Origin: an uncultured Anaerolineae bacterium | Lineage (GTDB): Bacteria; Chloroflexota; Anaerolineae; S016-19 | Direction: 5' to 3' | Length of the DNA stretch: 51,152 nucleotides | Assembly: GCA_964507175.1 (NCBI GenBank) | Contig: CAZDOZ010000001.1 | Coordinates: forward strand, 1 to 51,152 | Shown here: piece after piece, positions 13,607 to 50,371 of the stretch | How positions within the stretch are numbered: the first letter of the stretch is position 1 | Layout: every line of letters starts with the position of its first letter | Made by a program: the position numbers and the translations under genes | Notes under the pieces: generated by a model | Database searches by the model: none | The model's input: the letters and a program-made list of their open reading frames with translations, nothing else | What the model was told of the DNA's origin: nothing

Positions 13607-13626
13607 AACATCCTTTCCACTGCTTC

Positions 13627-13908
13627 CTAAGCTGCCAGGGCGATCTCTTCGGATGCCTCCCTCTCGGAGCCAAAAAACCCTTGGGATTTCAGAATGCGCT
13701 CGACGCTTTCGGAAGGCTGAGCGCCCACGCCAAGCCAGTAGCGGATTCTATCCTCTTTCAGGACGACTGTGGGCGGCTCGGTGCGTGGGTTGTAGTGCCC
13801 AACGATTTCAATGAACCTGCCATCACGCGGGGAACGGCTGTCCGCCACCACAACGCGGTAGCTTGGCTGCTTCTTGGCACCTACACGTCGCAAACGAATT
13901 TTGACCAT
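13627..13908 (-). CDS. rpsP: 30S ribosomal protein S16
   Basis: The internal start [23 protein letters not shown] matches the canonical S16 N-terminus. The upstream 33 codons of the ORF were rejected. Confidence 0.92.
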
Positions 13909-14065
13909 CTTTACTCGTGATCCTCCTCGATTTTCCTTTTGTATGTCGTGGAGCGCCCTATTTGACCCCAGCACTGCCACGCTTTCTGTTTCTGATAAGA
14001 TGCACATCCGTGCCGGCGCACCGGATGTGGGTCTCTCTGCACCTGACGCGCTGCCGTATTGTAAC

Positions 14066-16040: not shown

Positions 16041-16052
16041 CAGGGGGTATCC

Positions 16053-18290: not shown

Positions 18291-18738
18291 ACCATTTGCC
18301 ACCCTCGTGGATCAGGGGGACCTGGAAGCCGCTGCAGTTGAGACTCTGGAAAGCGAGAACGTAGTCGAGGGTGAGATGACGGTGGTGGTCACGGACGACG
18401 AGACCGTGCGCGGCCTGAACCGGCAATACCGTGGGGTGGATGCACCCACCGATGTCCTCTCGTTTCAAACCGGAGGGGATGATCAGGGATTTGTCTCTTC
18501 GCCGGAGTCCGCCGGGTACCTGGGGGACGTGGTGATCGCCTATCCATTCACTGCAGTTCAGGCTAAAGAGGCGGGCCGGTCCGTACAGCACGACCTGATT
18601 CTTATGGTGATCCATGGCACTCTGCACCTGCTGGGATACGATCACGCCACCTCGGAAGAGGAAAGAGAGATGTGGAAGAAGCAGGATGCCATCCTGCGCC
18701 GTCTGACCGGAGACCAGCCATCGGACACCCCCGAATAG
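18271..18738 (+). CDS. ybeY: rRNA maturation endoribonuclease YbeY
   Basis: Metal site HGTLHLLGYDH and NRQYRGVDAPTDVLSF. Start is ambiguous: GTG 18271 is preferred, GTG 18202 is possible. Either start overlaps the pgpH end. Confidence 0.85.
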   Translation: MHLQVDEPFATLVDQGDLEAAAVETLESENVVEGEMTVVVTDDETVRGLNRQYRGVDAPTDVLSFQTGGDDQGFVSSPESAGYLGDVVIAYPFTAVQAKEAGRSVQHDLILMVIHGTLHLLGYDHATSEEEREMWKKQDAILRRLTGDQPSDTPE

Positions 18739-18755
18739 GATGCATGCGAGGAGAA

Positions 18756-19142
18756 ATGATGAAAAGCCAAAGCCTCCTGCACAGCTTCAAATATGCTCTG
18801 GAAGGCATCGGCTATACCCTTCGCACGCAGCGGAACGCCAAAATTCACATCACCATAGCCGCCGCCGTGGTCGTGGTCGGAGTATGGCTCCGGGTTGCTC
18901 CGGTGGAGTGGGGTGTGCTCTTCCTGACCATAGGGGCAGTCTTCAGCGCAGAGATGCTGAATACCGTCGTGGAAACCATCATAGACGCCCAGATTGAGGA
19001 GTTCCATCCCCTGGCAAAGATCGCAAAGGATGTATCCGCAGGTGCTGTGTTCGTAATATCTGTGATCGCCGTCCTGGTTGGACTCTGCATCCTGGGGCCG
19101 CCATTGTGGGCCAAGCTGGCACCGGTGCTGGGTTTCCTGTAG
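18756..19142 (+). CDS. dgkA: diacylglycerol/undecaprenol kinase (DgkA family)
   Basis: MMKSQSLLHSFKYALEGI..RNAKIH..EMLNTVVETIID..AKDVSAGAV, with three TM helices. Confidence 0.85.
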   Translation: MMKSQSLLHSFKYALEGIGYTLRTQRNAKIHITIAAAVVVVGVWLRVAPVEWGVLFLTIGAVFSAEMLNTVVETIIDAQIEEFHPLAKIAKDVSAGAVFVISVIAVLVGLCILGPPLWAKLAPVLGFL

Positions 19143-19158
19143 GGCTCGCGCGCGTGGC

Positions 19159-19187
19159 TTGACAACAGAGTGAGAGCGTTCCATAAT
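19159..19187 (+). promoter_or_regulatory. sigma70-type promoter candidate for first Rpn gene
   Basis: TTGACA (19159-19164), 17-nt spacer, CATAAT (19182-19187), 24 nt upstream of ATG 19211. Confidence 0.4.
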
Positions 19188-19210
19188 TTCGATGAGAAGG
19201 ACGTGCCAGA

Positions 19211-20242
19211 ATGGGCGAAAGCAGTGAGATATCCAACGTTCACGACCATTTCTTCAAGGAGGTGTTCTCCAGGAAAGAAACGGCCAGCAACCTCATTGAG
19301 CGATTCCTTCCTGCGGAGGTGGTGAGGATACTTGATCTCTCGTCCCTGGAGAGCAGCAAGGGTTCATTTGTGGATCCTGAGCTACGCGAGCACTACTCCG
19401 ACCTGTTGTACAGGGTGGATATACGAGGGGGTGGTGCTGCTTACGTTTACGTGCTGTTTGAGCACAAAAGCTACCCTGACAGGCAGGTAGCGTTTCAAGT
19501 ATTGCGCTACATGGTGCGGATATGGGAGCACATGGTAAGGCAGGGGGAACGGCTGGTTCCTATAATTCCGATGGTGGTGTATCACGGGCTTGGCAGGTGG
19601 AGAGTAGGGGATAGCTTTGGTGAGTTGTTGAATTCGCCGGAGGAGTTGAAGGCTTTCCAGCCGGACTACAGGTACCAGCTTCTTGATCTTTCTCGGTACA
19701 GTGACGAAGAGTTGAAGTCAGGGGTGCTGAGGGGTGTTCACCTGCTGTTGTTGAAGTACATTTTGCGTCCTGACCTGAGGGAGCACGTGTGGGAGATATT
19801 CTCGTTGATGGAGGACCTTCTGGCGCGGGAGGATGGGCTGGAGTGGTTGGAGGTCATGATAAGGTATCTGTCTCAGGCTACGGACAGGATCACTGAGGAG
19901 GAGCTACGGGAAGCTGTCGAGTCAGTATTTGCAGAGGAGGGAGGTAGGATCATGGGAACCATAGCTGAGAAATGGGTAGAGCAAGGCCTGGAGCAAGGGA
20001 TAAAGCAGGGTCTGGATCAAGGCCTGGCAGAAGGATTCCGGAAAGGGCTTCTTTCTGGCATAGAGATGGGGCTTGAACTTCGGTTTGGGTCGGCAGGGCT
20101 GAAGCTTCTGCCGGAGATCTACCGGGTAAAGAATGTGGCGGCGCTCCAGGCGATACATGAGGGGCTGAAGACAGCGTCCAGTCTGGAGGAGTTGCGGGAG
20201 ATATACCTTCCCTACGTGGAAAAGGGAAACAAAGAGGGATAA
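19211..20242 (+). CDS. Rpn-family recombination-promoting nuclease / putative transposase (PD-(D/E)XK, YhgA-like), copy 1
   Basis: N-terminal HDHFFKEVF signature. YRVD..x13..FEHK fits a D...ExK nuclease core. C-terminal repetitive helical EQGxxQG domain is typical of Rpn/DUF4351 tails. Confidence 0.85.
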   Translation: MGESSEISNVHDHFFKEVFSRKETASNLIERFLPAEVVRILDLSSLESSKGSFVDPELREHYSDLLYRVDIRGGGAAYVYVLFEHKSYPDRQVAFQVLRYMVRIWEHMVRQGERLVPIIPMVVYHGLGRWRVGDSFGELLNSPEELKAFQPDYRYQLLDLSRYSDEELKSGVLRGVHLLLLKYILRPDLREHVWEIFSLMEDLLAREDGLEWLEVMIRYLSQATDRITEEELREAVESVFAEEGGRIMGTIAEKWVEQGLEQGIKQGLDQGLAEGFRKGLLSGIEMGLELRFGSAGLKLLPEIYRVKNVAALQAIHEGLKTASSLEELREIYLPYVEKGNKEG

Positions 20243-21334
20243 CATTGCCGGCTGCTCGCGGAGTTTTCTGATTCCTCCGAGCGGTTTCGTCTGCTATACG
20301 CGGGGAGATTATGGAAGAGAAATCCGTGGGAGACAAAGGGCCATCCAACGTCCATGATCATTTCTTCAAGGAGGTGTTCTCCAGGAAAGAAACGGCCAGC
20401 AACCTCATTGAGCGATTCCTTCCTGCGGAGGTGGTGAGGATACTTGATCTCTCGTCCCTGGAGAGCAGCAAGGGTTCATTTGTGGATCCTGAGCTACGCG
20501 AGCACTACTCCGACCTGTTGTACAGGGTGGATATACGAGGGGGTGGTGCTGCTTACGTTTACGTGCTGTTTGAGCACAAAAGCTACCCTGACAGGCAGGT
20601 AGCGTTTCAAGTATTGCGCTACATGGTGCGGATATGGGAGCACATGGTAAGGCAGGGGGAACGGCTGGTTCCTATAATTCCGATGGTGGTGTATCACGGG
20701 CTTGGCAGGTGGAGAGTAGGGGATAGCTTTGGTGAGTTGTTGAATTCGCCGGAGGAGTTGAAGGCTTTCCAGCCGGACTACAGGTACCAGCTTCTTGATC
20801 TTTCTCGGTACAGTGACGAAGAGTTGAAGTCAGGGGTGCTGAGGGGTGTTCACCTGCTGTTGTTGAAGTACATTTTGCGTCCTGACCTGAGGGAGCACGT
20901 GTGGGAGATATTCTCGTTGATGGAGGACCTTCTGGCGCGGGAGGATGGGCTGGAGTGGTTGGAGGTCATGATAAGGTATCTGTCTCAGGCTACGGACAGG
21001 ATCACTGAGGAGGAGCTACGGGAAGCTGTCGAGTCAGTATTTGCAGAGGAGGGAGGTAGGATCATGGGAACCATAGCTGAGAAATGGGTAGAGCAAGGCC
21101 TGGAGCAAGGGATAAAGCAGGGTCTGGATCAAGGCCTGGCAGAAGGATTCCGGAAAGGGCTTCTTTCTGGCATAGAGATGGGGCTTGAACTTCGGTTTGG
21201 GTCGGCAGGGCTGAAGCTTCTGCCGGAGATCTACCGGGTAAAGAATGTGGCGGCGCTCCAGGCGATACATGAGGGGCTGAAGACAGCATCCAGCCTGGAG
21301 GAGTTGCGGGAGATATACCTTCCCTACGTGGAGG
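19235..21334 (+). repeat. tandem direct duplication of the Rpn gene (unit offset 1112 bp)
   Basis: 19235-20222 aligns with 20347-21334. Between about 19247-20176 and 20359-21288 I found no mismatch by eye. A few synonymous differences occur only at the edges. Confidence 0.85.
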
Positions 21335-21354
21335 AAAAGGACGGAGACGACTGA
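20311..21354 (+). CDS. Rpn-family recombination-promoting nuclease / putative transposase, copy 2
   Basis: 329 internal residues are identical to copy 1. Only the extreme N- and C-terminal tips differ. Confidence 0.85.
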   Translation: MEEKSVGDKGPSNVHDHFFKEVFSRKETASNLIERFLPAEVVRILDLSSLESSKGSFVDPELREHYSDLLYRVDIRGGGAAYVYVLFEHKSYPDRQVAFQVLRYMVRIWEHMVRQGERLVPIIPMVVYHGLGRWRVGDSFGELLNSPEELKAFQPDYRYQLLDLSRYSDEELKSGVLRGVHLLLLKYILRPDLREHVWEIFSLMEDLLAREDGLEWLEVMIRYLSQATDRITEEELREAVESVFAEEGGRIMGTIAEKWVEQGLEQGIKQGLDQGLAEGFRKGLLSGIEMGLELRFGSAGLKLLPEIYRVKNVAALQAIHEGLKTASSLEELREIYLPYVEEKDGDD

Positions 21355-21791
21355 TGCCTTACGAGGAAGCATTCCGAAAGGTGGCACGGGAGGAAGGGGT
21401 CGATTACTGTCTCCTGTACGAGACTGCCAGGCGGGAGAGCAATTTCAATCCCCTGGCGATAGGCTCTGTGGGTGAGTATGGGTTGATGCAGGTGCATCCG
21501 GACAACTGGGGCAAGCTGGCCCCACAGTTGGGCCTTTACGACCCTTTCGACCCATACAGCAACATAAAAGCCGCAGCTGTCTACCTAAAATGGCTCATAC
21601 GCGAGGTGAGGTCCATGGGGCTGACCGAGGAACGCTGGATCCTGGTGGGCTACAACTGGGGCACCGGAAATCTGAAAAAGCTGGTCCAATCAGGCGGCGG
21701 TTGGGACCAGGTACCTCAGGCCCCGGCTGCATACGCCACATCGATAATCCTCTCGGCCGAGGCCTGCCGGATATCCGGAGGGGCGAATTGA
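21354..21791 (+). CDS. small soluble lytic transglycosylase (SLT domain) protein
   Basis: ARRESNFNP..GEYGLMQV..YNWGTGN motifs of SLT/goose-lysozyme-like transglycosylases. 145 aa with no hydrophobic N-terminus. Its ATG shares one nucleotide with the Rpn copy-2 TGA. Confidence 0.8.
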   Translation: MPYEEAFRKVAREEGVDYCLLYETARRESNFNPLAIGSVGEYGLMQVHPDNWGKLAPQLGLYDPFDPYSNIKAAAVYLKWLIREVRSMGLTEERWILVGYNWGTGNLKKLVQSGGGWDQVPQAPAAYATSIILSAEACRISGGAN

Positions 21792-22414
21792 GCAGCCTCG
21801 ACGAACGCCGGATCGCCTTGCGGAAGCTCCATGCCGAGATGCGTGCATGCAGAAAGTGCCAGGAAGCCGGGTTCCCCACAGTGCCTGGCGCCATTTTCTC
21901 CGGCGATGCCAGCGCCCGCATCATGATCATCGGACAGGCGCCCGGAAAAGTCGAGGCTTTCACTACAAAGAAGCCGTTCAGCGGCCCCGCTGGCAAGCGC
22001 TTGATGCGCTGGATGGAGGAAGCTGGGTGGATGGAGGAGGAATTCCGGCGGGAGGCGTACATTACCGCCGTCACCAAATGCTTCCCCGGGCCCGGGAAAA
22101 ATGGCCGTGGCGATCGGGCCCCAACTGCCAGGGAGCGCGAGCTTTGCAGGCCTTTTCTGGAGCGTGAACTTTCCATCGTGAATCCAGATGTAGTGGTTCC
22201 GGTGGGAAGGCTTGCTATCGCGCATTTTCTGGGAAACTCCATCCGTCTTGCCGACGTGATCGGACATTCCTTCCAGGTGGATGGAAGAATCGTCGTGCCG
22301 CTCCCACATCCGTCGGGCGCCAGCGCGTGGGCCAATTCCGCTGCGAACCAGGAGAGAATCCACAAGGCTCTTGCCATTCTGCGAGATCTCCGGCCGGGCC
22401 TGCGCCCTGAATGA
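21788..22414 (+). CDS. uracil-DNA glycosylase superfamily protein (Fe-S family 4/5-like)
   Basis: CRKC..C..C cysteines, motif A IIGQAPG, PFSGPAGKRL, motif B PHPSGAS. Start is uncertain: TTG 21788 overlaps the SLT stop as TTGA, and ATG 21839 is the alternative. Confidence 0.75.
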   Translation: MSSLDERRIALRKLHAEMRACRKCQEAGFPTVPGAIFSGDASARIMIIGQAPGKVEAFTTKKPFSGPAGKRLMRWMEEAGWMEEEFRREAYITAVTKCFPGPGKNGRGDRAPTARERELCRPFLERELSIVNPDVVVPVGRLAIAHFLGNSIRLADVIGHSFQVDGRIVVPLPHPSGASAWANSAANQERIHKALAILRDLRPGLRPE

Positions 22415-41469: not shown

Positions 41470-42927
41470 CTAGTGCCCTGTTCTCTTCTTCTCCAAATAC
41501 TCTGCCATCGCCTCGGCCGCCTTGCGCGCCCCTGCGAGGGCCGTTACCACCAGATCGGGGCCATTGACATTGTCACCTCCCGCATATAGGCCTTCCCTGC
41601 TGGTCTCTCCAGTCTCAGGGTCCACCTTTATGAGTCCCCATTTATCGCACTCCAACCATGGTTCAGTTTTCTTGAAAATGGGATCGGGCCAATATCCGAT
41701 TGCAAGCACCACCAGATCCACATCTATCGTGAATTCTGTCCCCTCGATTGGGATTGGCCTGCGCCTGCCTGACTCGTCCGGCTCCCCTAACCTCATACGG
41801 ATGCATTCCATGGCCGCGACACGGCCGTCCTCGCCAGGGATGAATTTCGTCGGGACCGTCAGATACTCGAAATGTGCACCCTCTTCCTCTGCCAGATGCT
41901 TGTCCTTGAGACCCGCCGGCATTTCCACCTCGGATCGACGATAGACGCATGTGACCTCCTTGGCCTTCATCCGGAGGCTAGTGCGCAGGCAGTCCATCGC
42001 TGTATCGCCACCACCTATTACTGCCACTCGTTTCCCTTCCACCTGTGGTTTTTCCCTCATGCCAGGGGGAAGCATTTCGGGAGGCAGGTTCAGTTTCACA
42101 AGGTATTCTGTGGCATGATAGACCCCTGGGAGGTCCTCCCCTGGAACACGCATGCTGGCGTCTATTTCCGCACCAGTGCCCAGGAACACTGCGTCGTACT
42201 CCTCTATCAGATCGTCGAGAGTCGGGTTGCCTTCGGCGCAAATTCGGGTGTTGCAGACAAATTTCACACCGAGTTTTTCTTCCAGGTACCGTATCTTGTA
42301 CCTCGGAATTTCCTTGTCCAGCTTGAAATTGGGAATGCCATACACCAGCAGGCCGCCGGGGTTAGGCCATGCTTCATATACGGTAATGCTATGCCCTAGC
42401 TTCGCAAGCCTTTCGGCCACCAGGAGTCCGGCAGGGCCAGATCCGATCACTGCTACTTTCTGCCCTGTAGGAGCCACCTGAGGTGGCTCGGGGTATCCCA
42501 CCGTTTTGCGCTCATAAGTGGCTGCCGATGCCTCAAGCATGCCGATGTGTACCGGGTCCCTCAATTTGCCAATAACGCAGGCACCCTCGCATAGACGCTC
42601 CTGCGGGCATACCCTGCCACATATCTCCGAAAAGCCGCTGGTCTGGTGGAAAACCCTTATCCCATCTATTATCTCCCCTTGGCTCATGTGCCAGAGGGCT
42701 AAGGGAATATTGTTATGCAGGGGACAGGCCTCCACGCACGGCTGTGGGGCACGGCATATTATGCAGCGCGAAGCCTCGACTTTGATCGTATCCAAGTCGT
42801 ACAAGTGGAAAGCTTCCTCGAAATCGTTGAGCCTTTCTTCCGCCGGACGATAAGGAATGTCGTTTGCGGGGATCTTTGCGCGGGATTTGCGATCCACGCG
42901 CAGGTGGCTTGTGTCGTAGGAAACCAT
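41470..42927 (-). CDS. GltD/NfnB/SudA-like NAD(P)H-dependent FAD/Fe-S oxidoreductase (glutamate synthase small-subunit family)
   Basis: N-terminal Fe-S cysteines CIICRAPQPCVEACP and CGRVCPQERLCEGAC. Two dinucleotide folds: VAVIGSGPAGL and VAVIGGGDTAMD. Confidence 0.85.
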   Translation of the reverse strand: MVSYDTSHLRVDRKSRAKIPANDIPYRPAEERLNDFEEAFHLYDLDTIKVEASRCIICRAPQPCVEACPLHNNIPLALWHMSQGEIIDGIRVFHQTSGFSEICGRVCPQERLCEGACVIGKLRDPVHIGMLEASAATYERKTVGYPEPPQVAPTGQKVAVIGSGPAGLLVAERLAKLGHSITVYEAWPNPGGLLVYGIPNFKLDKEIPRYKIRYLEEKLGVKFVCNTRICAEGNPTLDDLIEEYDAVFLGTGAEIDASMRVPGEDLPGVYHATEYLVKLNLPPEMLPPGMREKPQVEGKRVAVIGGGDTAMDCLRTSLRMKAKEVTCVYRRSEVEMPAGLKDKHLAEEEGAHFEYLTVPTKFIPGEDGRVAAMECIRMRLGEPDESGRRRPIPIEGTEFTIDVDLVVLAIGYWPDPIFKKTEPWLECDKWGLIKVDPETGETSREGLYAGGDNVNGPDLVVTALAGARKAAEAMAEYLEKKRTGH

Positions 42928-43114: not shown

Positions 43115-44011
43115 TCAGTGCAGAAATCGGAACAACGCCAGCAGTATCATCATCAAGCCCAGGTACGGGCTCAAAAGCAAGTAGGCCTTCTTGATATAAG
43201 TTCTGTGGTTAGTTCTCAAGTACCTGCAGGCAAAGTAAAGGGAAGGGATAGATAACAGCAGAGAGGCCAGAAAAGGTCTAATAGCGCAGTATCCCATCAG
43301 ATGTACTCCAAACACCACAGCGTTGATCAGCAAGACAATTGTGCTCGACGCGATGACCCCTTTCTTGACCCCTATAATCGCTGGCAGCATGGGCACGGCT
43401 GCTCTCTCGTAGTCCTCGACGTAGTAGCTGGATATCAGCCAGATGTGGGCCATTGACCAGAGAGCTATGATGAGGACAAGGGATATAGAAAGGCCGTCCA
43501 ATCTGCTGGAATAGGCCACGTACCCTGCAAGAGCAGGCATCCCTCCTGCAACTCCACCTACCGATACAGAAAAAGGGCTCCTCCTTTTCAGCAAAACCGT
43601 GTACAAAAGCAGATCGATTATGAAGCCAGAGAACACGGCAAATCCGCACAAAAGATTGATGCCGGCCGCAAGGAGTATCCCTGGAATCACAAGGGCAACA
43701 GAGATGGAGAAGGCTGTGCTTGGGGATATCTGCTCGGATGGTAGCGCTCTGTCTTTTGTCCTGAACATCAGAGCGTCGATATCCCTATCGAAGTACATGT
43801 TCAGCCCTGTGGTACCTGATACCGCAAGAAGAAGTGCAAAGGTCACGAGAGGAAGGGCCACGTCCACCCTTCCTCCCGAAGCTATGAGATACCCTAGCAT
43901 TCCTGTCAGAACCAGGAGCGCTGTTTGAGACGGTTTGAATGTAGAGAGCAGTATCGTCAGGCCTGAGCCTGCTGCTCTTTTTCTTTCCTGCTGTAAGTTT
44001 CCGACATCCAT
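43115..44011 (-). CDS. ctaB: UbiA-family prenyltransferase, heme O synthase (CtaB/CyoE)-like
   Basis: FKPSQTALLVLT, NMYFDRDIDALMFRTKDRALP, VGGVAGGMPALAGY, EDYERAAVPMLP. Start ATG 44011 was chosen; it overlaps the upstream gene by 55 nt and has no clear RBS. Confidence 0.72.
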   Translation of the reverse strand: MDVGNLQQERKRAAGSGLTILLSTFKPSQTALLVLTGMLGYLIASGGRVDVALPLVTFALLLAVSGTTGLNMYFDRDIDALMFRTKDRALPSEQISPSTAFSISVALVIPGILLAAGINLLCGFAVFSGFIIDLLLYTVLLKRRSPFSVSVGGVAGGMPALAGYVAYSSRLDGLSISLVLIIALWSMAHIWLISSYYVEDYERAAVPMLPAIIGVKKGVIASSTIVLLINAVVFGVHLMGYCAIRPFLASLLLSIPSLYFACRYLRTNHRTYIKKAYLLLSPYLGLMMILLALFRFLH

Positions 44012-45072
44012 AGTGCCAGTGGCCTGTAAATGGCATGGGCAAACTTGGTAAACGGTGCCGTGAGCAACAAATCGAACACTATTACCAAGTGCACGGCGAA
44101 AGTTATATAGGCTGGCCAGGGCAGATTGACCCACATGAATACATCCAGCAAAAAGCCCGTGAGACCCGCCAGGAACATCAGCCATACGAACACCCAGTCA
44201 CTGTGGTGAGAGTATTTCGAGTAACTGTCTTTTATGAAATACCTCCTGTAGAGATAGTATCCCGACCCATAAAGCAAGACGAGCCCTGATACTATTCCTA
44301 TTACATGTGGCACAATCTTCAGTCCACTGTTTACGGAGATCAGAAAATCTATGCCGAAAGCAAGGATAGTCGCCAAAAACAACCCCAAAAAGCCCCATAA
44401 CAGCGCCAGATGGGCCCAGTAGCGGTTTTTGTCCTCACATTCGTCGAACGTTTTCTGAATAAACACCTCATTGATTAATATATCCCAGAAACTCTGCAGC
44501 CACTCCCCCAGACTTGCCTGTATCCCGTCCTTGTGCAAGCTTCTCCACATTACCACCAGTTGGACTATGGCGAAGAACGCTATTACAACCCCGAGGACTA
44601 TACCAGCGTAATGGAGGAAGTCCAACGTTATGAACGACAGCGGATCCACCTTGGTCAGGTTTGGATTCGGATTGTGGAAGTAGGCTATGCCCGCTATAGC
44701 GGCAACGGTAAGGACAAGCCAGGTTACCGCCGCGCTGGTGCCGTTGTAGAAAAGGTCTGCGATTTTCCCAAGGGAGTAGCGCCGTATAGCATAGCGACGG
44801 AGTGCCATCATGAGCCCACCAGGGTCTGCCTGCCTGGGACAGGTATCCGTGCACTCCCCGCAGTAGTAACACCGCCACAGCTCGGGCCCGCTCAATATCT
44901 TATCTTCCAGGCCCAGCATAGAATACCTTATCATCATCCTTGGGAAGGAATACTCTTCCGTGGAGAGAGGGCATATCGCTGTACAGTTTCCGCAACTGTA
45001 GCAAGCGCTTATGTCAAAAGCCCCGAGTTCCTTCACCTTGTCCAAGAAGCCTGGATTGACTTTTGCCATCAT
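43957..45072 (-). CDS. QmoC-like fusion protein: HdrC-like 2x[4Fe-4S] domain plus HdrE/NarI-like six-helix cytochrome-b membrane domain
   Basis: CYSCGNCTAICP and CYYCGECTDTCP in the first ~100 aa, then six hydrophobic helices with conserved-looking His residues. C-terminal PFTKFAHAIYRP is typical of NarI/DsrM/HdrE-type proteins. Confidence 0.8.
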   Translation of the reverse strand: MMAKVNPGFLDKVKELGAFDISACYSCGNCTAICPLSTEEYSFPRMMIRYSMLGLEDKILSGPELWRCYYCGECTDTCPRQADPGGLMMALRRYAIRRYSLGKIADLFYNGTSAAVTWLVLTVAAIAGIAYFHNPNPNLTKVDPLSFITLDFLHYAGIVLGVVIAFFAIVQLVVMWRSLHKDGIQASLGEWLQSFWDILINEVFIQKTFDECEDKNRYWAHLALLWGFLGLFLATILAFGIDFLISVNSGLKIVPHVIGIVSGLVLLYGSGYYLYRRYFIKDSYSKYSHHSDWVFVWLMFLAGLTGFLLDVFMWVNLPWPAYITFAVHLVIVFDLLLTAPFTKFAHAIYRPLALWMSETYSRKEKEQQAQA

Positions 45073-45350
45073 TTCCCCCTTTTCACCAGCGTGTACTTAT
45101 GGTAGCCATCCTCGGTAACATCACCTGTTTCTATGATGGCTTCATACTTTCTCATCGTCATCATCCAGTACATTACCTCGGAGGTGGGCATGGAAACAAT
45201 CTCTGCCACTTCAGGAACTGTCTTCGGTTCGGATTCCAAAGCTTTGGTTATCAGCTTTTTAATCTTTGCGAATTCCTGGGTCTTTGTCATCAGTTCCTTT
45301 GGGACTTTCATCTTTTTCTTCATCTCAAGGTAGGTTTTTGTCTTCGACAT
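45069..45350 (-). CDS. small lysine-rich protein, possible winged-helix fold, unknown function
   Basis: 93 aa. GGAGG RBS. Starts 1 nt after the hdrA-like stop and overlaps the QmoC-like start (ATGA). The C-terminal half TVPEVAEIV..PTSEVMYWMMTMRKYEAIIETG..DGYHKYTL looks like HTH plus wing. Confidence 0.5.
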   Translation of the reverse strand: MSKTKTYLEMKKKMKVPKELMTKTQEFAKIKKLITKALESEPKTVPEVAEIVSMPTSEVMYWMMTMRKYEAIIETGDVTEDGYHKYTLVKRGK

Positions 45351-45351
45351 C

Positions 45352-47088
45352 TCACTCCCCCTCCAAGAGCGCATCTATTGCTGCCAATATAGTCTGGTCT
45401 TCATAACCTTTGACCTGAATGGCATCCGCCGGGCAAACCGGGACGCATCCACCGCACCCTTTGCAGAGCAGCTCGGTGACTTCAGCAACCTCCTTGCCCC
45501 GCTGTTCGTCCTTAACCTTTTTGATGGCTTCGTAGGGGCATGCCTCCAGGCAAGCACCACACCACTCGCATCTGTCTGGGTCTACGAACGCTACCGTTGG
45601 CTGCAACTCGGTGTACCCTTTCATAACAAGTGCTGCCGCCTTCGAAGCAGCTGCGAGGGCAGAGGCTGTGCTTTCGGAGGAGTTTTTTGGTCCCTGAGCA
45701 ACGCCAGCGATGTATACTCCATCAATCACCGTCTCCACAGGTCGCAGCTTGGGGTGGATTTCATTGTAGAATCTATCCCGCCCAATCGGAATCTTGAGCG
45801 CGTTTGTCAGGTCAGCGTTTTGTCTCGGTACCATGCCGGTCACTAGCACGACCAGATCCGGGTATATCTCAACTTCTTCCCTATTTGTCAGAAGGTCTTT
45901 AACCCTCACCCTCAGCGTGCCGTTGGAAGAATCTACAACAGGTGGCTCATCCTCATCGAATTTGATGAAGACCGACCCGAGCTTCTGGGACTCCTCGTAC
46001 AGGGTCTCGTACTTTCCATATGTCCTTATATCCCTGTACAAGTGGAATTGGTGGATAGTCGGATCCACCTTTGAAACCAGGATCGATGTGTGGATGGTCG
46101 CGTTACAGCAGTAGCGAGAGCAGTAAGTGTTCGCGTTTTCTACGTCTGGCTTCTGGCGAGAACCGACGCAATAGATATAAGCTACGCTTTTCACCTGTTT
46201 TCCATCGTACCGCAGCTCTCCATCCGAGGCCTCCACCATTTCTTTGAACTTAGGCAGAGTGACCACCCCTTTCATGCCGTATCCGTATTCCCCTTGCTTC
46301 GGCTCGTATGTATCGAATCCTGTCGCTACTATGATGGCGCCGACTTTGAGGTCGATGGTTTCGCCAGGCTTGTCGCCCACCTTTATCGTTACTTCGAAGT
46401 TCCCCAGGTATCCGGCCTTTTTCAGAAGCTCGGCTTTCGTGAATATCGTTATCTTGGAGCCTCTCTTGGCAATCTCAGACATCAGCTCATCTATAATCTC
46501 TTTTCCGTTTTTGTCGTGTGGATACATTACGGAGAACTTACTTACCCAGCCGCCGACTTTCTCCTCTCGTTCTATGAGATAGACATATATCCCCATGTCG
46601 GCCAGAACGAGCGCTGCTCTAAGTCCGGCTATTCCCCCTCCTATGATGAGGGCTTTTTTGACCGTTTCTACCTCTAGTGGTTTAAGGGGTTTGGATAGTC
46701 TTGCTTTGGCTATACCAGCTCTTACCAGTTCTATTGCTTTCTCCGTTGCCCCTTCCCAATCCTCTCTGTGAGCCCATGAATCTTGCTCCCTTATGTTCAC
46801 CTGGACGTACTGGTAAGGGTTCAACCCGGCCCTTTTTGCAACGCCCCTGAAAGTAAGGAGGTGAAGTTTCGGTGAACAAGATGCGACAACGAGACCATCG
46901 AGCTTCTTCTCCTTTATGTCGTCTATCATCTCTTGTTGGCCGGCATCTGAGCAGGCAAACATGGTGGTTTTGGCGACGACGACGCCGGGCTCGTTTGCTA
47001 TCGCATCTCTGACTCTTTTCACATCTACATAATCAGAGATGTTTCCACCGCAGTGGCAGATGTATACCCCAATTCTCCTCTCAGTCAC
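45352..47088 (-). CDS. HdrA-family flavoprotein with N-terminal Cys domain and C-terminal 2x[4Fe-4S] ferredoxin domain
   Basis: GTG start with GAGGAGG RBS. IGVYICHCGGNI, FAD fold LIIGGGIAGL, HdrA-type cluster motif CVGSRQ..CSRYCC. C-terminal CEWCGACLEACP and CKGCGGCVPVCP. Confidence 0.88.
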   Translation of the reverse strand: MTERRIGVYICHCGGNISDYVDVKRVRDAIANEPGVVVAKTTMFACSDAGQQEMIDDIKEKKLDGLVVASCSPKLHLLTFRGVAKRAGLNPYQYVQVNIREQDSWAHREDWEGATEKAIELVRAGIAKARLSKPLKPLEVETVKKALIIGGGIAGLRAALVLADMGIYVYLIEREEKVGGWVSKFSVMYPHDKNGKEIIDELMSEIAKRGSKITIFTKAELLKKAGYLGNFEVTIKVGDKPGETIDLKVGAIIVATGFDTYEPKQGEYGYGMKGVVTLPKFKEMVEASDGELRYDGKQVKSVAYIYCVGSRQKPDVENANTYCSRYCCNATIHTSILVSKVDPTIHQFHLYRDIRTYGKYETLYEESQKLGSVFIKFDEDEPPVVDSSNGTLRVRVKDLLTNREEVEIYPDLVVLVTGMVPRQNADLTNALKIPIGRDRFYNEIHPKLRPVETVIDGVYIAGVAQGPKNSSESTASALAAASKAAALVMKGYTELQPTVAFVDPDRCEWCGACLEACPYEAIKKVKDEQRGKEVAEVTELLCKGCGGCVPVCPADAIQVKGYEDQTILAAIDALLEGE

Positions 47089-48377
47089 TTCTGCCTCCTC
47101 GTCGTTTCCATGTAGGCTATCGCCTCTGCAGAGGCAGCCCCTGCCGACAGTATGGTGTCAGGTATATCTTTGGGCCCGTAAGCGGTTCCTGCCACAAAAA
47201 CACCTTCTATGCTTGTCCTTGCCGGGCTCAAATCTTCGTCAACCTGCTTTACATAATAGTAGTCATCCAATTCCAGTTTCTCCCCCTTGAATATCGAGGC
47301 TACCTCTGGAGTTGGGAGCAGTCCGACGGAGAGAACAACCATGTCGTGTTCAGCCTCTTGTACTCTTCCGCCATTCTCTATGTCCTCGTACCTCAGGAGA
47401 AGGTTCCCGTTTTCTAGTTCCTCTATTTTCGCAACTCTACCCTTTACGAATTGGACTCCCATATCCCGGGTTTGTTTGAAGAACTCTTCGTACCCTTTGC
47501 CGTAAGCCCTTATGTCCATATAGTAAAGCGTCACATCAGCAAGGGGAAGGGCTCCCAATATAAGCTGGGCCTGTTTGATTGAATACATGCAGCATATCTG
47601 GGAGCAAAGAGGGTTGCCAACTGTTCTATCTCTTGAGCCAGTACAAAGGACATAGGCGATGTTTTCCGCCTCTTTGCCATCCGAAGGCCTCAGAACCGTA
47701 TTAAAAGGCCTTGTCGGGGCAAGCAGCCTATCCATTTGCATGGCATTTATGACATTCTTGAATTTCCCGAATCCGTACTGAGGCTTCCGTTCCGCGGGGA
47801 AGAGCCTAAACCCGGTTGCAACAATAACCGATTTTACATTCACTTCCAGTTCTTCCGGTTCCTGGGTGAAGTCAATGGCATCTGCAGGGCAGGCTCTTTC
47901 GCATGCGCCGCAGAGGATACAATTGTCTATGTCGACTACAGCGACTTTGGGGATAGCCTGCGGAAAGGGTATGTAAACAGCCTTTCGTCCAACGAGGTCG
48001 AAATTGAACTCATCGTGTTCAACATTCACCGGGCAAGCTCTTTCGCATTCTTGGCATCCAGTACAGGCAGTCTCATTGACGTATTTGGGTTTCTTTAGGA
48101 TTTTTGCACTAAATCCATCCCCATCTTTCCTGACTTCCGTGACTTCCGTATACGTCATGGTGGTGATGTTCGGATGGTGCGCTGTCTCCGCCATTTTCGG
48201 TGTACTGATACAACTTGCACAGTCAAGAGTGGGGAAGACCTTGCTCAGAAGAATCATTTTGCCGCCAATGCTCGGCTCTTTCTCGACGAGCAGAACCTTG
48301 TAACCTGCATCCCCAAGATTGATCGCCGACTCCATGCCGGCTATCCCCCCTCCTATGATTAAGACATCATATTCCAT
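47085..48377 (-). CDS. HdrA/QmoA-B-family flavoprotein with inserted 2x[4Fe-4S] ferredoxin domain
   Basis: YDVLIIGGGIAGM FAD fold. Inserted CTGCQECERACP and CILCGACERACP. HdrA cluster motif CTGSRDRTVGNPLCSQICC. Start ATG 48377 has a GGAGG RBS; the upstream 40 codons were rejected. Confidence 0.85.
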   Translation of the reverse strand: MEYDVLIIGGGIAGMESAINLGDAGYKVLLVEKEPSIGGKMILLSKVFPTLDCASCISTPKMAETAHHPNITTMTYTEVTEVRKDGDGFSAKILKKPKYVNETACTGCQECERACPVNVEHDEFNFDLVGRKAVYIPFPQAIPKVAVVDIDNCILCGACERACPADAIDFTQEPEELEVNVKSVIVATGFRLFPAERKPQYGFGKFKNVINAMQMDRLLAPTRPFNTVLRPSDGKEAENIAYVLCTGSRDRTVGNPLCSQICCMYSIKQAQLILGALPLADVTLYYMDIRAYGKGYEEFFKQTRDMGVQFVKGRVAKIEELENGNLLLRYEDIENGGRVQEAEHDMVVLSVGLLPTPEVASIFKGEKLELDDYYYVKQVDEDLSPARTSIEGVFVAGTAYGPKDIPDTILSAGAASAEAIAYMETTRRQK

Positions 48378-48388
48378 TATTTCACCTC

Positions 48389-48841
48389 CTAACCTTCTGC
48401 ACTCTTCGAGCCTTCTGCTGTTGATGGGCCAAGTCCCTTGAGGGCGTTGAAGAAATTGTTCATGTGGTTCGCGAATGGCTCCGCACAAACTGAGCAAATT
48501 GCCCCCATCTTCACCCTTTGGGGACTATACCCCTTTTCTTTCAGAAGGTTCTGTGCTTCATCGGCTATCTTCGCTGTTCTAGTTGTACAGTCTGGGAGGA
48601 AGGGACAGTCTGTCCCATCCGCGGCGATGAACACACCATCGAACCCCTTCTCAATGGCATGGAGAATCCATTTGGGCTTTATTCCGCTTGAGCATGGAAG
48701 GGATATAACATCCACTGTAGAAGGATACACCAAATGCGAGCTACCAGCCAGGTCTATTCCGGGGTCTGAAATGCTGTCAGTCGAAAAAACGAGAATCCTA
48801 GGAGCAAACTCTTTATTCTCCTCTTTTTTCTCTGCACTCAT
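48389..48841 (-). CDS. MvhD/FlpD-like (methyl-viologen-reducing hydrogenase delta subunit family) protein
   Basis: ILVFS..DLAG..YP..V..ISLPCSSGIKPKWILHAIEKGFDGVFIAADGTDCPF..C pattern of the FlpD family. Start ATG 48841 has a GGAGG RBS. Confidence 0.78.
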   Translation of the reverse strand: MSAEKKEENKEFAPRILVFSTDSISDPGIDLAGSSHLVYPSTVDVISLPCSSGIKPKWILHAIEKGFDGVFIAADGTDCPFLPDCTTRTAKIADEAQNLLKEKGYSPQRVKMGAICSVCAEPFANHMNNFFNALKGLGPSTAEGSKSAEG

Positions 48842-48976
48842 ACCTTGTCTACCTCCATCATCTCCTTCAAACAAAGGGAAACTTCCGAAGCTATGGCACA
48901 GTTGCTTTGTCTTGGCTATCTTTTGTTGCAAGCCTCGGAAGTCTCAATCCCTTAAAATGCTTGGCTTTTCGCATCG

Positions 48977-49231
48977 TCACCTTGTTTTCTTGACGAAGAT
49001 CCTCCAGTATCCGGGCTCCTCCAGGATGCCCAAGTGCTCGTACTTCATCTTCTTTGCCCACAGAGGTATGTCCCTGTTGGTCCCCGGGTCCGACGAGAGG
49101 ACTTCCAGCACTCCACCAACAGGAACTGCCGCTATCGACTTTTTCGCTGCCAAAAGCGGACCAGGACAAGATGTCCCCCTTGCATCAACCACTTTGTCCG
49201 ACTTGATGTTTCTCAATTCTTCTTCAGTCAT
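48977..49231 (-). CDS. tusA: TusA/SirA-family sulfur carrier protein
   Basis: VVDARGTSCPGPLL (CPxP active-site motif). 84 aa. AGGAGG lies 6 nt before ATG 49231. Confidence 0.85.
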   Translation of the reverse strand: MTEEELRNIKSDKVVDARGTSCPGPLLAAKKSIAAVPVGGVLEVLSSDPGTNRDIPLWAKKMKYEHLGILEEPGYWRIFVKKTR

Positions 49232-49349
49232 TTGATTCCTCCTTAGATAGTGAGTGGCCAGAGGCATACACCAATCTCTCATTGCCCCTGGAAAACCCAG
49301 ACTCTCAAAATGCTGGGATTGAGCCAGAAAACAAGTACAGAGCTAGATT

Positions 49350-49763
49350 TTAGACAAAGAATGTCGCATCTGCCTTTTCTGCCATATCCATGAACTCACC
49401 AGCGCCAATGACGTCATCGACAATGTCCAGGAAATCTTCTTTCTTTCCTCCCCAAATCTGGAAAGCGAGAGAGCACAGGTGAATCCTCACAGGGGCCGCT
49501 TCCCTTGCCTGCTTCAGTAAATCAAGCCAGGAAGGTGCCTTAAGCTCTACGAGGGCTTTATGAACCTGGGGCTTTAGCTCTGAGAATTCCGAAAAGTTGG
49601 CGTTTCCCTCTACGACATCTTTTCTGAAAGCGTAGGAACCCCAGAGCTGGAGGAAAATGTCAACTTCCATATCCTGTGCAGCTGCACCACCAACGAGGAC
49701 AGCTAATCCAGTTAGCTTATCCACGCTACCAGAGAAAAGCACAACCGCCATCTTCTTAGCCAT
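49350..49763 (-). CDS. DsrE/DsrF-like family protein (COG2210-type), paralogue B
   Basis: MAVVLFSGSVDKL..A..GAAA.. fold start, a single cysteine in HLCSLAF, C-terminus ATFFV. GAGGAGG lies 6 nt before ATG 49763. Confidence 0.75.
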   Translation of the reverse strand: MAKKMAVVLFSGSVDKLTGLAVLVGGAAAQDMEVDIFLQLWGSYAFRKDVVEGNANFSEFSELKPQVHKALVELKAPSWLDLLKQAREAAPVRIHLCSLAFQIWGGKKEDFLDIVDDVIGAGEFMDMAEKADATFFV

Positions 49764-49882
49764 TTGAACCTCCTCGTTCATTACTCATACATTGACACAG
49801 ACTACTTTCACGACATTGCTACACAACAACAATCGAGCGTAGCGCTATCCTACGACCATAATACCTTCCTGCATAATGTGTC

Positions 49883-50371
49883 TCAGACGAATAATGTTAT
49901 TTGAGACTCCCTAGCTTCGGCAATAAATGTCCCAACTCCGACGGGCTCGCCTATCCCATCTACCAGATCTTCCTTTTTTATTTCCATCACGTCCATGCTC
50001 ATTTGGCATGGCACAATATTTACCCCCAAATCGATGGCATTCTGTAGGAGCTCATGAAGGGGAGTCACATTGTGTTTTTTCATCATCTTCTTGAACATCC
50101 AATTACCGAGTCCGCCGAAGGCGTATTTGGACGGAGCAAGGTTGTCGATGCCTCCCGGGTTTAGCAAACCGAGTATCTTTCCAAAGAAACTATCCCCAGT
50201 ATGTTTTTTCTTCTGTAATGCCCTGAGCCCCCAAAAAGTAAAGAACATGGTAACATCCATGTCAAATGCTACTGCTCCTGTTGCTATGATAAATGCACCC
50301 ATTATCTTGTCCATATCCCCGCTAAGGATCACCATGGATAATTTTTCGTTCTTTTCTTCCTCTTCTTCCAT
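49883..50371 (-). CDS. DsrE/DsrF-like family protein (COG2210-type), paralogue A
   Basis: LSMVILSGDMDKIMGAFIIATGA.., a cysteine in VPCQMSMDV, C-terminus ITLFV. Acidic N-terminal MEEEEEK. Confidence 0.75.
   Translation of the reverse strand: MEEEEEKNEKLSMVILSGDMDKIMGAFIIATGAVAFDMDVTMFFTFWGLRALQKKKHTGDSFFGKILGLLNPGGIDNLAPSKYAFGGLGNWMFKKMMKKHNVTPLHELLQNAIDLGVNIVPCQMSMDVMEIKKEDLVDGIGEPVGVGTFIAEARESQITLFV

Follow-up and report, generated by a model that had tools for sequence, protein, structure and literature searches.

The window, i.e. the whole stretch of 51,152 nucleotides analysed here, derives from a metagenome-assembled genome of an anaerobic member of the Anaerolineae. Its minus strand carries two adjacent genes for HdrA-like proteins of 578 and 430 amino acids (hereafter A578 and A430), preceded by a gene for MvhD, all three located where the earlier note had placed them. 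The features of the locus are, from the operon head downwards:

48977..50371, minus strand: sulfur-carrier genes at the operon head (Pfam), as given in the next three lines
49883-50371, minus strand: DsrE2-like gene (Pfam DrsE_2; E 1e-47 and 6.6e-14 given for the DsrE2-like/DsrE-like pair)
49350-49781, minus strand: DsrE-like gene (Pfam DrsE_2; E-values as for the pair above)
48977-49282, minus strand: TusA (Pfam TusA, E 2.5e-22)
48389..48841, minus strand: free-standing MvhD/FlpD-family protein, 150 aa, presumed [2Fe-2S] adaptor (Pfam FlpD, E 6.5e-27)
47085..48377, minus strand: A430, HdrA-like, 430 aa, FAD/thioredoxin-reductase core and inserted 2x[4Fe-4S] ferredoxin domain (domain alignment)
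45352..47088, minus strand: A578, HdrA-like, 578 aa, N-terminal cluster domain, FAD core and C-terminal 2x[4Fe-4S] ferredoxin domain (domain alignment)
45069..45350, minus strand: small winged-helix protein, 93 aa (AF2 and Foldseek)
43957..45072, minus strand: QmoC-like membrane anchor, 371 aa (NCBIfam qmoC, 219 bits)
43115..44011, minus strand: UbiA-family prenyltransferase, heme O synthase-like (TIGR01473, 201 bits vs cut-off 210)
41470..42927, minus strand: stand-alone GltD/NfnB-like NAD(P)H flavoprotein, 485 aa (Pfam Fer4_20 and Pyr_redox_2; TIGR01316, E 3e-127)

A perfect sigma-70 consensus (12/12) at 50611-50583 precedes the sulfur-carrier genes, and a GGAGG sequence is found 9 nt ahead of the MvhD start codon (ATG at 48841). 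The GTG start of A578 overlaps the A430 stop codon (GTGA), the winged-helix ATG follows 1 nt past the A578 stop, an ATGA overlap joins the winged-helix gene to qmoC, and the 3' end of qmoC is overlapped by the UbiA-family gene. A terminator-like hairpin is located at 41427-41410, by the GltD/NfnB-like gene; between ubiA and that gene, no site of this kind was listed for the minus strand.

Domains and cluster ligands of A578 and A430

[quoted passage not shown] Alignment to solved HdrA structures gave the same partition. With HMMER, A578 aligned to residues 9-243 and 319-653 of 8rvu_a, and no counterpart of residues 244-318, the inserted ferredoxin domain, was present. A430 aligned unbroken to residues 146-561 of 5odc_A and 146-564 of 9sfi_A, inserted domain included, and it has neither the N-terminal nor the C-terminal domain of HdrA. 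Coverage of the NCBIfam HdrA2 model agreed, with A430 spanning positions 140-562, A578 two stretches of which the last ends at 642, and MvhD positions 641-775. [quoted passage not shown] The pair is thus predicted to bind about 7 [4Fe-4S] clusters and 2 FAD, compared with 12 clusters in the HdrA homodimer.

The cysteine motifs quoted in the note are all present. All 16 cysteines of A578 and all 14 of A430 belong to cluster motifs or to the C53/C56 CxxC of A430, which holds the equivalent of Cys197; they align to cysteines of solved HdrA and are conserved in 82 homologues of A578 and 54 of A430. In A578 they include C11, C13, C46 and C71 of the N-terminal domain, where C13 is conceivable as the fourth ligand in the absence of a partner, and C307/C323/C327/C328 of the core. 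In A430 the core cluster is formed by C245/C258/C262/C263 and the inserted domain adds eight cysteines; C53/C56 correspond to Cys194/Cys197 of HdrA, D216 to E356 and K268 to K409. A578 has K282/H333 at the E356/K409 positions and no equivalents of Cys194/Cys197. The FAD motif and the full core cluster are retained in both proteins.

These features are stable among relatives. The A430 cysteines (C53, C56, the eight of the inserted domain and the four of the core) are kept in 53-54 of 54 sequences, and K268 and D/E216 in 54/54 each. The 16 cysteines of A578 are kept in 70-82 of 82 relatives; at position 333, 70/82 have His and the residues listed include no Lys, and those listed for the Cys197-equivalent position include no Cys. 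The complementarity of Cys197 and the N-terminal domain holds for 54/54 A430 and 82/82 A578 relatives, from at least 10 phyla.

Neighbouring subunits and the gene family

At least 592 species have the gene order TusA-MvhD-HdrA-HdrA-winged helix-QmoC or HdrCB-DsrE. Of the related loci, all those with enough upstream sequence contain TusA (66/66) and 59/80 contain DsrE-type genes, and in a quarter to a third of the relatives HdrC plus HdrB, a disulfide-reductase module, replaces QmoC. The role of TusA/DsrE is hardest to explain in the QmoC form, which lacks the HdrB active site. The A430 and A578 homologues are adjacent in every locus with the upstream gene on the contig, and in the host genome (97% complete) A430 and A578 are the only two HdrA homologues.

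MvhD matches the MvhD chain 5odc_D (E 6.7e-14), although the methanogen motif FCCNWC reads FSTDSI in the window. Its cysteines follow a different pattern: C50, C79, C85, C116 and C119 are all kept in 70/70 family members, and methanogen MvhD and the MvhD domain of QmoB share just C50 and C79 with it. Five invariant cysteines are one above the need of a four-cysteine cluster. As pointed out previously, MvhD is here encoded by a separate upstream gene, which is the rule in the family (66/66 loci), whereas it is fused to QmoB in all 13 canonical qmo operons of our comparison set. The winged-helix protein contains no cysteines, and its gene is located between the second HdrA gene and the QmoC/HdrC gene in 80/80 related loci; the AF2 model has a mean pLDDT of 87.9, and the best Foldseek matches are ArsR/SmtB and MarR winged-helix proteins (E about 1e-3).

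The QmoC-like protein combines an N-terminal 2x[4Fe-4S] HdrC-like domain with a six-helix cytochrome-b-type domain. Eight cysteines and H221, H328 and H346 are conserved across 50 sequences of the family and 10 of canonical QmoC, with six hydrophobic segments. NCBIfam qmoC scores are bimodal, with canonical QmoC at 373-525 bits and a second class at 156-205; the window protein, at 219 bits, falls under the cut-off of 300. The UbiA-family gene is kept in loci L006, L015 and L118, and a genome-wide search found no COX1.

In nearly all related loci a GltD/NfnB-like sequence of about 440-590 aa is inserted in the A430 homologue, but the first HdrA of the window is unfused. The stand-alone GltD-like gene at the operon end, also seen in loci L006 and L118, encodes a protein with 53-59% identity to many stand-alone homologues and only 31-43% to the inserted modules, and is therefore not a fission product. 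By analogy it is a candidate stand-in for the NfnB-like module that most relatives carry inside their first HdrA, and synteny among close relatives suggests that it may belong to the complex.

A putative heterodimeric core and its possible reaction

We consider it likely that A430 pairs with A578 as an obligate 1:1 heterodimer. This pair would be the flavin/iron-sulfur core of a Qmo-like complex anchored in the membrane, the other members being MvhD, the winged-helix protein, QmoC and probably the GltD/NfnB-like protein. An obligate asymmetric heterodimer had been proposed before, and the proposal gained support from the confinement of C56 to A430 and of the N-terminal domain to A578 throughout both sets of relatives, from the GTGA overlap, and from the parallel A430 and A578 subtrees, the pairwise distances of which correlate with r=0.84.

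In HdrA, Cys197 of one subunit ligates the N-terminal cluster of its partner (PMC9012536), and both the A3 cluster and residue 197 are linked to the bifurcating FAD (PMC13518236); K409/E356 are proposed signatures of bifurcation, not a proven discriminator (PMC12054007). By analogy with the published structures, A578 C11, C46 and C71 would combine with A430 C56 to hold one shared [4Fe-4S] cluster, placed beside the A430 flavin according to text descriptions of the methanogen enzymes. Canonical QmoB has just the equivalents of C11, C46 and C71 (where A578 has four N-terminal cysteines) and no Cys197, and QmoA has Cys197 (13/13), which fits a 3+1 ligation. The A430 flavin would be the sole bifurcation-competent flavin. 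[quoted passage not shown] The high-potential branch would run through a core cluster to the iron-sulfur clusters and hemes of QmoC and on to menaquinone, and A578 would provide in trans a mobile arm consisting of its N-terminal domain, its C-terminal ferredoxin domain and MvhD.

A link to NAD(P)H is indicated by the widespread GltD/NfnB-like insertion in A430 homologues, and a link to quinone by the six-helix QmoC-like protein with its iron-sulfur cysteines and three conserved histidines. It is quite possible, though we would not call it probable, that the complex bifurcates or confurcates electrons, with NAD(P)H as one partner, the quinone pool as another, and either ferredoxin or sulfane sulfur borne by TusA/DsrE as the third.

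That the carriers are the true substrates, their sulfane sulfur being reduced or oxidised with NAD(P)H and the quinone pool, is a doubtful reading, which has in its favour the conserved TusA and DsrE-type genes and the relatives with HdrC plus HdrB instead of QmoC. Thiol/persulfide couples have a potential between those of NAD(P)H and menaquinone. On the other hand, the QmoC form, including that of the window, lacks an HdrB-type active site, the host genome encodes no close HdrB, and no cysteine-rich catalytic site is evident, the five invariant cysteines of MvhD excepted.

Alternatively, though we find it rather unlikely, NAD(P)H oxidation could be bifurcated downhill to menaquinone and uphill to ferredoxin, or the reverse, with TusA/DsrE as accessories. 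The reaction should be thermodynamically feasible, and it agrees with an HdrA architecture with one bifurcation-signature flavin, an NfnB-like NAD(P)H module and a quinone anchor, and with a ferredoxin-using anaerobe that has four 2-oxoacid:ferredoxin oxidoreductases and, in its genome, neither a terminal oxidase nor a [NiFe] hydrogenase. However, it leaves the universal keeping of sulfur-carrier genes without explanation, and the NAD(P)H module of most relatives is attached to what in methanogens is the low-potential exit branch, an odd place for a donor.

We find it improbable that A430 and A578 are unpaired, acting alone or as separate homodimers with adjacency reflecting co-regulation only. 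Both are complete in FAD motif and core cluster, the four N-terminal cysteines of A578 might suffice for a cluster, and sHdrA (6tjr), a minimal HdrA homodimer, matches both. Yet the invariant C53/C56 would be idle in an A430 homodimer, the genes are translationally coupled, the phylogenies run in parallel, and the strict complementarity extends over some ten phyla; moreover, QmoA/QmoB, in which the same partition evolved separately, are purified together as one complex (PMC3333476).

Relation to Qmo and other HdrA systems

The heterodimeric layout proposed here has precedents, and the earlier view of it as unusual was not supported. Canonical QmoABC ('type I', of sulfate reducers and Chlorobi) has, in the 13 operons compared, an identical partition over two HdrA-derived flavoproteins: QmoA, like A430, has the core, the inserted domain and Cys197 without the N-terminal domain, QmoB, like A578, the N-terminal domain, core and C-terminal ferredoxin domain without Cys197, and an HdrC/cytochrome-b fusion anchor comes next. 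The differences, beyond the fusion of MvhD, are that K409/E356 are kept in QmoB (13/13) but not in A578, that the second motif of the inserted domain is degraded in QmoA but intact in the window, and that canonical Qmo is tied to aprBA, where the window genome has TusA/DsrE genes instead and no Apr/Dsr.

[quoted passage not shown] The archaeal class HdrA6 consists of the core and inserted domain only, as A430 does, and the GltD-inserted 'type III' A9 derives from A6 (PMC12054007). These systems, likened to the window by descriptions and not by sequences, are archaeal, from methane-metabolism contexts without TusA/DsrE and QmoC.

Bacterial hdrL/hdrA tandems with a free-standing mvhD were described in 2009 (PMC2702500). 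Those of Desulfofundulus (L005, L009) and, going by the paper's description, of Desulfobacterium autotrophicum HRM2 (locus VIII) belong to the same family, with the order TusA-MvhD-HdrL(HdrA::GltD)-HdrA-small ORF-HdrC-HdrB-DsrE, and A578 is 61-63% identical to its homologues in such loci. The window differs in the unfused first HdrA, in QmoC replacing HdrCB, and in the stand-alone GltD-like and UbiA-family genes at the operon end. The best PDB sequence matches (E 1e-103 to 1e-126) are those of methanogen HdrABC-MvhAGD (5odc, 8rvu, 9sfi, 7bkb), in which all cluster cysteines and FAD motifs align and MvhD is homologous; those complexes, however, include HdrB/HdrC and a hydrogenase, their HdrA is a single full-length chain that forms a symmetric homodimer, and the cysteine pattern of their MvhD is different.

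A430 and A578 are not orthologues of canonical QmoA/QmoB, and both group with methanogen HdrA. In the tree, canonical QmoA and QmoB are split from the A430/A578 family at 100% SH-aLRT, the AU test rejects a clade of A430 and QmoA (p=0.01), and core identities are 31-34% to canonical Qmo and 42-43% to methanogen HdrA. Of the objection that the proteins are simply QmoA/QmoB orthologues with the usual domains, the domain content thus stands and the orthology falls. The suggested origin by duplication and complementary domain loss is plausible, but the event would be old, the two cores being 32% identical to each other. The placement fits 'type II' QmoAB(C), which is nearer to HdrA than bacterial QmoAB, occurs with or without Dsr/Apr and is of unknown function (Neukirchen et al. 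2023); that description also matches the bimodal QmoC scores, suggesting that the window family is 'type II' Qmo.

An ordinary QmoA/QmoB/QmoC connecting the quinone pool with APS reductase, with MvhD merely unfused, is largely refuted and highly improbable, since despite the identical partition, the QmoC-like anchor downstream and 'type II Qmo' in the sulfate reducers Vulcanisaeta moutnovskia and Ammonifex degensii (PMC10504309), the tree and AU test separate the families, the QmoC score lies below the canonical range, neither AprA nor DsrA was found in the 97%-complete genome, AprA occurs in only 7/50 cluster-bearing genomes, and in the cultured sulfate reducer Desulfofundulus thermobenzoicus a canonical aprBA-qmoAB locus coexists with the TusA/MvhD/HdrA/HdrA cluster. 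For the last three reasons the complex is not a partner of APS reductase. Its split-HdrA layout, already known from QmoA/QmoB and tandem HdrA genes, is a good example and no new kind, and the loss of the flavin residues K409/E356 in the A578 lineage is possibly novel.

Operon layout and domain composition

In the window, the operon under study lies on the minus strand, where the genes from DsrE2 to the GltD/NfnB-like gene are tightly packed. Its two HdrA-like proteins, of 430 and 578 residues, are referred to as A430 and A578.

Genes of the operon, in coordinates of the window. All assignments are from Pfam/NCBIfam, except for the 93-aa ORF.
49883-50371, minus strand, DsrE2-like protein
49350-49781, minus strand, DsrE-like protein
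48977-49282, minus strand, TusA
48389-48841, minus strand, MvhD
47085-48377, minus strand, A430, HdrA-like protein of 430 aa
45352-47088, minus strand, A578, HdrA-like protein of 578 aa
45069-45350, minus strand, 93-aa ORF without cysteines, between the second hdrA and qmoC
43957-45072, minus strand, QmoC-like protein
43115-44011, minus strand, UbiA-family prenyltransferase
41470-42927, minus strand, GltD/NfnB-like protein

The stop codon of A430 and the GTG start codon of A578 overlap in GTGA, the 93-aa ORF starts 1 nt past the A578 stop, and its own stop overlaps the qmoC start in ATGA. The gene row is preceded by a sigma-70 consensus (12/12 positions) and followed by a terminator-like hairpin, although the regional total of such sites is not above chance. 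Together with the overlaps and the tight spacing, these are signs of a single transcription unit. The G+C content is 0.48-0.51 across the operon (44000-50000) versus 0.53-0.60 in the rest of the window, and the same 10-gene operon, 81-93% identical, is present in a genome assigned to another family of the class (G127, locus L118); the two observations suggest horizontal transfer of the whole operon. Elsewhere in the window, on the plus strand, two adjacent paralogous genes of the Rpn family (PD-(D/E)XK transposase-like) are found at 19211-20242 and 20311-21354.

The domains were mapped by HMMER alignment to solved methanogen HdrA (E 1e-103 to 1e-126). A578 aligns to residues 9-243 and 319-653 of 8rvu_a, the 75-residue inserted ferredoxin domain being absent. 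A430 aligns unbroken to residues 146-561 of 5odc_A and 146-564 of 9sfi_A, inserted ferredoxin domain included, and lacks both the N-terminal and the C-terminal HdrA domain. On the NCBIfam HdrA2 model, A430 covers positions 140-562, A578 two stretches up to 642, and MvhD 641-775; the three genes thus add up to one HdrA2-type protein that has two FAD cores. The earlier note had described an HdrA domain set split over two paralogues plus a free-standing MvhD, and this description holds in every detail. Both proteins carry the GxGxxG FAD motif and the four core-cluster Cys of the HdrA superfamily. Neither combines all four domains of methanogen-type HdrA in one chain, and their NCBIfam HdrA/HdrA2 scores (357-513 bits) are below the cut-offs of 1100-1400. 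The GltD/NfnB-like NAD(P)H module that an HdrL (HdrA::GltD fusion) carries within its inserted ferredoxin domain is absent from A430, which is therefore not an HdrL.

The cysteine count proposed in the earlier note could be completed with an alignment of A430, A578, the solved HdrA sequences and 13 canonical QmoA/QmoB pairs. All 16 Cys of A578 and all 14 of A430 were placed, and none in either protein falls outside the listed cluster or CxxC positions. In A578 these are C11, C13, C46 and C71 of the N-terminal domain, C307, C323, C327 and C328 of the core cluster, and eight in the C-terminal ferredoxin domain. In A430 they are C53 and C56 (equivalent to C194 and C197 of methanogen HdrA), eight in the inserted ferredoxin domain, and C245, C258, C262 and C263 of the core cluster. 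Both sets of core-cluster Cys match the ligands C386, C399, C403 and C404 of 5odc. In homologues from other genomes the cluster Cys are conserved in 70-82 of 82 A578-type proteins (the core-cluster four in 82/82) and in 53-54 of 54 A430-type proteins.

MvhD is a clear FlpD-family protein (Pfam PF02662, 94 bits against a cut-off of 22.3), homologous to 5odc_D, but only C50 and C79 of its five Cys align with Cys of methanogen MvhD. The methanogen motif FCCNWC reads FSTDSI in the window, and the N-terminal CCxxC is lost. C85, C116 and C119, on the other hand, are invariant in 70/70 family members and missing from the MvhD domain of canonical QmoB, so that the cluster is probably kept via a different ligand set. 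One of the five conserved Cys may be surplus to cluster binding.

The QmoC-like protein shares with canonical QmoC its architecture, an HdrC-like 2x[4Fe-4S] domain plus a heme-b membrane domain, as well as eight Cys and three conserved His. It scores 219 bits on NCBIfam NF038018 (cut-off 300), compared with 373-525 for canonical QmoC, and was grouped with a second class of low scores (156-205). The 93-aa ORF, found in 80/80 related loci, was modeled with an AF2 pLDDT of 88; Foldseek gave generic winged-helix hits only (ArsR/SmtB, MarR; E ~1e-3), and W62 and I34 are invariant among 32 aligned sequences. The prenyltransferase, whose gene overlaps the 3' end of qmoC, resembles heme O synthase (201 bits, cut-off 210), and the gene is also kept 3' of the QmoC-like gene in three other loci (L006, L015 and L118). 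Its product may modify a heme or quinone used by the complex. Finally, the GltD-like gene matches many stand-alone homologues at 53-59% identity and the inserted modules of HdrL fusions at 31-43% identity, by which it was rejected as a fission product of such a fusion.

Relation to canonical Qmo and APS reductase

The 13 canonical pairs show that the partition seen in the window is the usual one for Qmo-type proteins. Of these operons, two (L090 and L091) were reached via aprA and the rest via the canonical QmoC score, several of them with an AprB-like ORF upstream. Canonical QmoA consists of the core, the inserted ferredoxin domain and Cys197, as does A430; canonical QmoB consists of the N-terminal domain, core, C-terminal ferredoxin domain and a fused MvhD, and A578 matches it in domain content apart from MvhD, which is unfused in the window. 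The locus L090 of Desulfofundulus thermobenzoicus (3417-11836) holds canonical aprB-aprA-qmoA-qmoB followed by an HdrD-like gene (HdrC and HdrB fused) and a QmoC-like gene, and thus both alternative Qmo partners in one operon.

The question raised in the earlier note, whether A430 and A578 are simply orthologues of QmoA and QmoB with the usual domains, has a divided answer: the architecture is the same, but the descent is separate. A maximum-likelihood tree was built from 334 core columns of canonical QmoA and QmoB, methanogen HdrA and the A430 and A578 clades. In it, QmoA and QmoB group together and are split from the other three clades at 100% SH-aLRT, and a clade of A430 with QmoA is rejected by the AU test (p=0.01). 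In the core, A430 shares 43% of its residues with methanogen HdrA, 34% with QmoA and 32% with A578; for A578 the values are 42% with HdrA and 33% with QmoB. A recent duplication giving rise to A430 and A578 was rejected, since their cores are only 32% identical and both resemble methanogen HdrA more than they resemble one another. The tree does not settle the branching order of the HdrA, A430 and A578 clades. With separate clades and the same partition, the partition has evolved at least twice; that QmoAB was assembled more than once has been concluded previously (PMC10504309).

That study, by Neukirchen et al. 2023, also distinguished a 'type II' Qmo that is closer to HdrA, occurs with or without Apr/Dsr and has no known function, and the family of the window matches it by description. 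This remark and the description of 'HdrL' by Strittmatter et al. 2009 (PMC2702500), to which the A430 homologues with a GltD/NfnB insertion correspond, were the only literature found on this exact gene cluster. The inserted form also has an archaeal counterpart in 'type III' HdrA, which derives from class A6 (PMC12054007). The sulfur-oxidising sHdr system is defined by a core-only HdrA, two HdrB, two HdrC and LbpA lipoate-binding proteins. The complex of the window is of another kind, as its HdrA paralogues both carry extra domains and the genome has no close HdrB. Papers on Thermomicrobium and on peatland were set aside as dealing with systems other than this gene cluster, and no Qmo structure was found in the PDB by sequence match to A430 or A578.

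The possibility that the complex is a canonical Qmo serving APS reductase was rejected. In addition to the tree and the AU test, no AprA above cut-off and no DsrA were found in the genome (2.4 Mb, 97% complete), AprA occurs in only 7/50 cluster-bearing genomes, and D. thermobenzoicus holds both an aprBA-qmoAB locus and a cluster of the window type; the complex is thus not an APS reductase partner. The genome also lacks a heme-copper oxidase (no COX1), [NiFe] hydrogenase and a close HdrB, and encodes four 2-oxoacid:ferredoxin oxidoreductases and one each of TusA, MvhD and the GltD-like protein. Its LepA is 74-78% identical to that of named Anaerolineae MAGs. The host is an anaerobe using ferredoxin.

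The predicted heterodimer and its flavins

Chadwick et al. 2022 summarised the M. wolfeii structure and proposed obligate heterodimers in which the two-fold symmetry is broken (PMC9012536). The complementary tandem pattern of that proposal is found in the window: A430 has C56 and lacks the N-terminal domain, and A578 is the reverse, with N and E at the positions of C194 and C197. A Cys stands at the Cys197 position in 54/54 A430-type proteins, and none was seen there among the residues listed for 82 A578-type proteins. Canonical QmoB has only three N-terminal Cys (equivalents of C11, C46 and C71) and no Cys197, and QmoA has Cys197 in 13/13 cases, which fits a 3+1 ligation.

A430- and A578-type genes are adjacent in every locus seen, their subtrees are parallel with pairwise distances correlating at 0.84, and the two proteins are the only HdrA homologues in the genome. 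Judged from these sequence features, together with the complementarity, the conservation and the translational coupling, A430 and A578 probably form a 1:1 heterodimer. The conservation, the gene overlap and the parallel trees likewise point to one [4Fe-4S] cluster shared between the two. The heterodimer put forward in the earlier note is accordingly well supported by the complementary C56 and N-terminal domain, the coupling of the genes and the parallel trees, but it is not novel, as the concept had already been published.

In HdrA, K409 and E356 contact N5 of the FAD and have been proposed as marks of bifurcating flavins (PMC12054007). A430 has K268 and D216 at these positions, and in its lineage the Lys is kept in 54/54 and D or E in 54/54 proteins. 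A578 has H333 and K282; position 333 is His in 70/82 proteins of its lineage and never Lys among the residues listed (n=82). In the canonical pairs, Lys and Glu are retained in QmoA as well as QmoB (13/13). In the description of Paul et al. 2026 (PMC13518236), the bifurcating FAD is connected via the N-terminal A3 cluster and residue 197. This residue and the N-terminal domain come from different protomers. Taken together, these text descriptions of structures and the K409/E356 pattern would place the shared cluster beside the flavin of A430.

A possible working scheme would then have a single shared N-terminal cluster adjoining the A430 flavin, which would be the only bifurcation-competent flavin. 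The main part of A578 would be to supply, in trans, the N-terminal domain, the C-terminal ferredoxin domain and MvhD. The low-potential branch might lead through the inserted ferredoxin domain of A430 to the NAD(P)H module, and the high-potential branch to QmoC and on to menaquinone; ferredoxin and carrier-bound sulfur are candidates for the third substrate. The boldest reading, which we consider less likely than not, is of one working bifurcation site with A578 as a flavin-demoted scaffold (K409 to His and E356 to Lys family-wide), whose N-terminal cluster and C-terminal ferredoxin domain, along with a re-ligated MvhD, would serve the A430 flavin in trans. The assembly would be an uncharacterised class of energy-converting complex, present in at least ~600 species of many phyla, that couples NAD(P)H with the quinone pool or an HdrBC site and with sulfur bound to TusA/DsrE, and the window would represent a rare modular form with a separate NAD(P)H subunit.

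Distribution and meaning of the family

The architecture of A578 is very common, the best matches listed being ~575 aa long and 60-74% identical. In a scan of one genome per species, carriers of the TusA-MvhD-HdrA-HdrA-wHTH-QmoC (or HdrCB)-DsrE cluster were found in at least 592 species, including Bacillota, Chloroflexota, Actinomycetota, Gemmatimonadota, Acidobacteriota, Nitrospirota, Verrucomicrobiota and other phyla. A census retained 80 loci, 66 of which had enough upstream sequence for upstream genes to be counted; MvhD and TusA are present in all 66. The downstream partner is QmoC-like in 51 of the 80 loci and HdrC plus HdrB in 25, never both, and DsrE-type genes occur in 59/80.

Where the gene is complete, the A430 homologue of nearly all relatives contains a GltD/NfnB-like insertion of 440-590 aa. 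Beyond the window, the combination of an unfused A430 and a separate GltD-like gene closing the operon was seen only in the close relatives L006 (same genus) and G127/L118 (81-93% identity). A third subtype, TusA-MvhD-unfused HdrA (451-466 aa)-long HdrA (723-731 aa)-wHTH-QmoC, occurs in L116 (genome G057) and L117 (genome G295), with no GltD-like gene nearby. The unfused HdrA is A430-like and the long one A578-like. In L116 the long HdrA keeps four Cys of the inserted ferredoxin domain, corresponding to C256, C293, C296 and C299 of 5odc, which would suffice for one cluster, and this form may be an intermediate in domain loss.

In an uncultured Thermoleophilia MAG (L056) the cluster occurs twice in one locus, back to back, as an HdrCB form at 7136-14950 (plus strand) and a QmoC form at 16013-22101 (minus strand). 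The second copy has an apparent frameshift in its first hdrA. An apparent A430-A578 fusion ORF in L056 was excluded from use, being most like a read-through caused by a frameshift in high-GC sequence. Sampled Anaerolineae genomes often have several HdrA homologues, with up to 8 matches per genome in a class-wide search, and many of these have a single in-frame TGA, which probably encodes selenocysteine in the place of Cys197.

As a discovery, the domain split is not new, having been published before. Added by the present work are its independent origin relative to canonical Qmo, tested by the tree and the AU test, the loss of K409/E356 throughout the A578 lineage, the re-patterned Cys of MvhD and the rare unfused first HdrA. 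Bifurcation by HdrA has so far been studied in symmetric homodimers, in which the halves are indistinguishable. [quoted passage not shown] That the same partition arose separately in QmoAB and in the family of the window suggests that asymmetry is a favoured solution rather than an accident. The function of the whole complex is more interesting than the split: uncultured anaerobes and soil bacteria very commonly carry the wider gene cluster, and knowledge of its reaction could close a gap in the understanding of how NAD(P)H, quinones and sulfur carriers are connected in these organisms.
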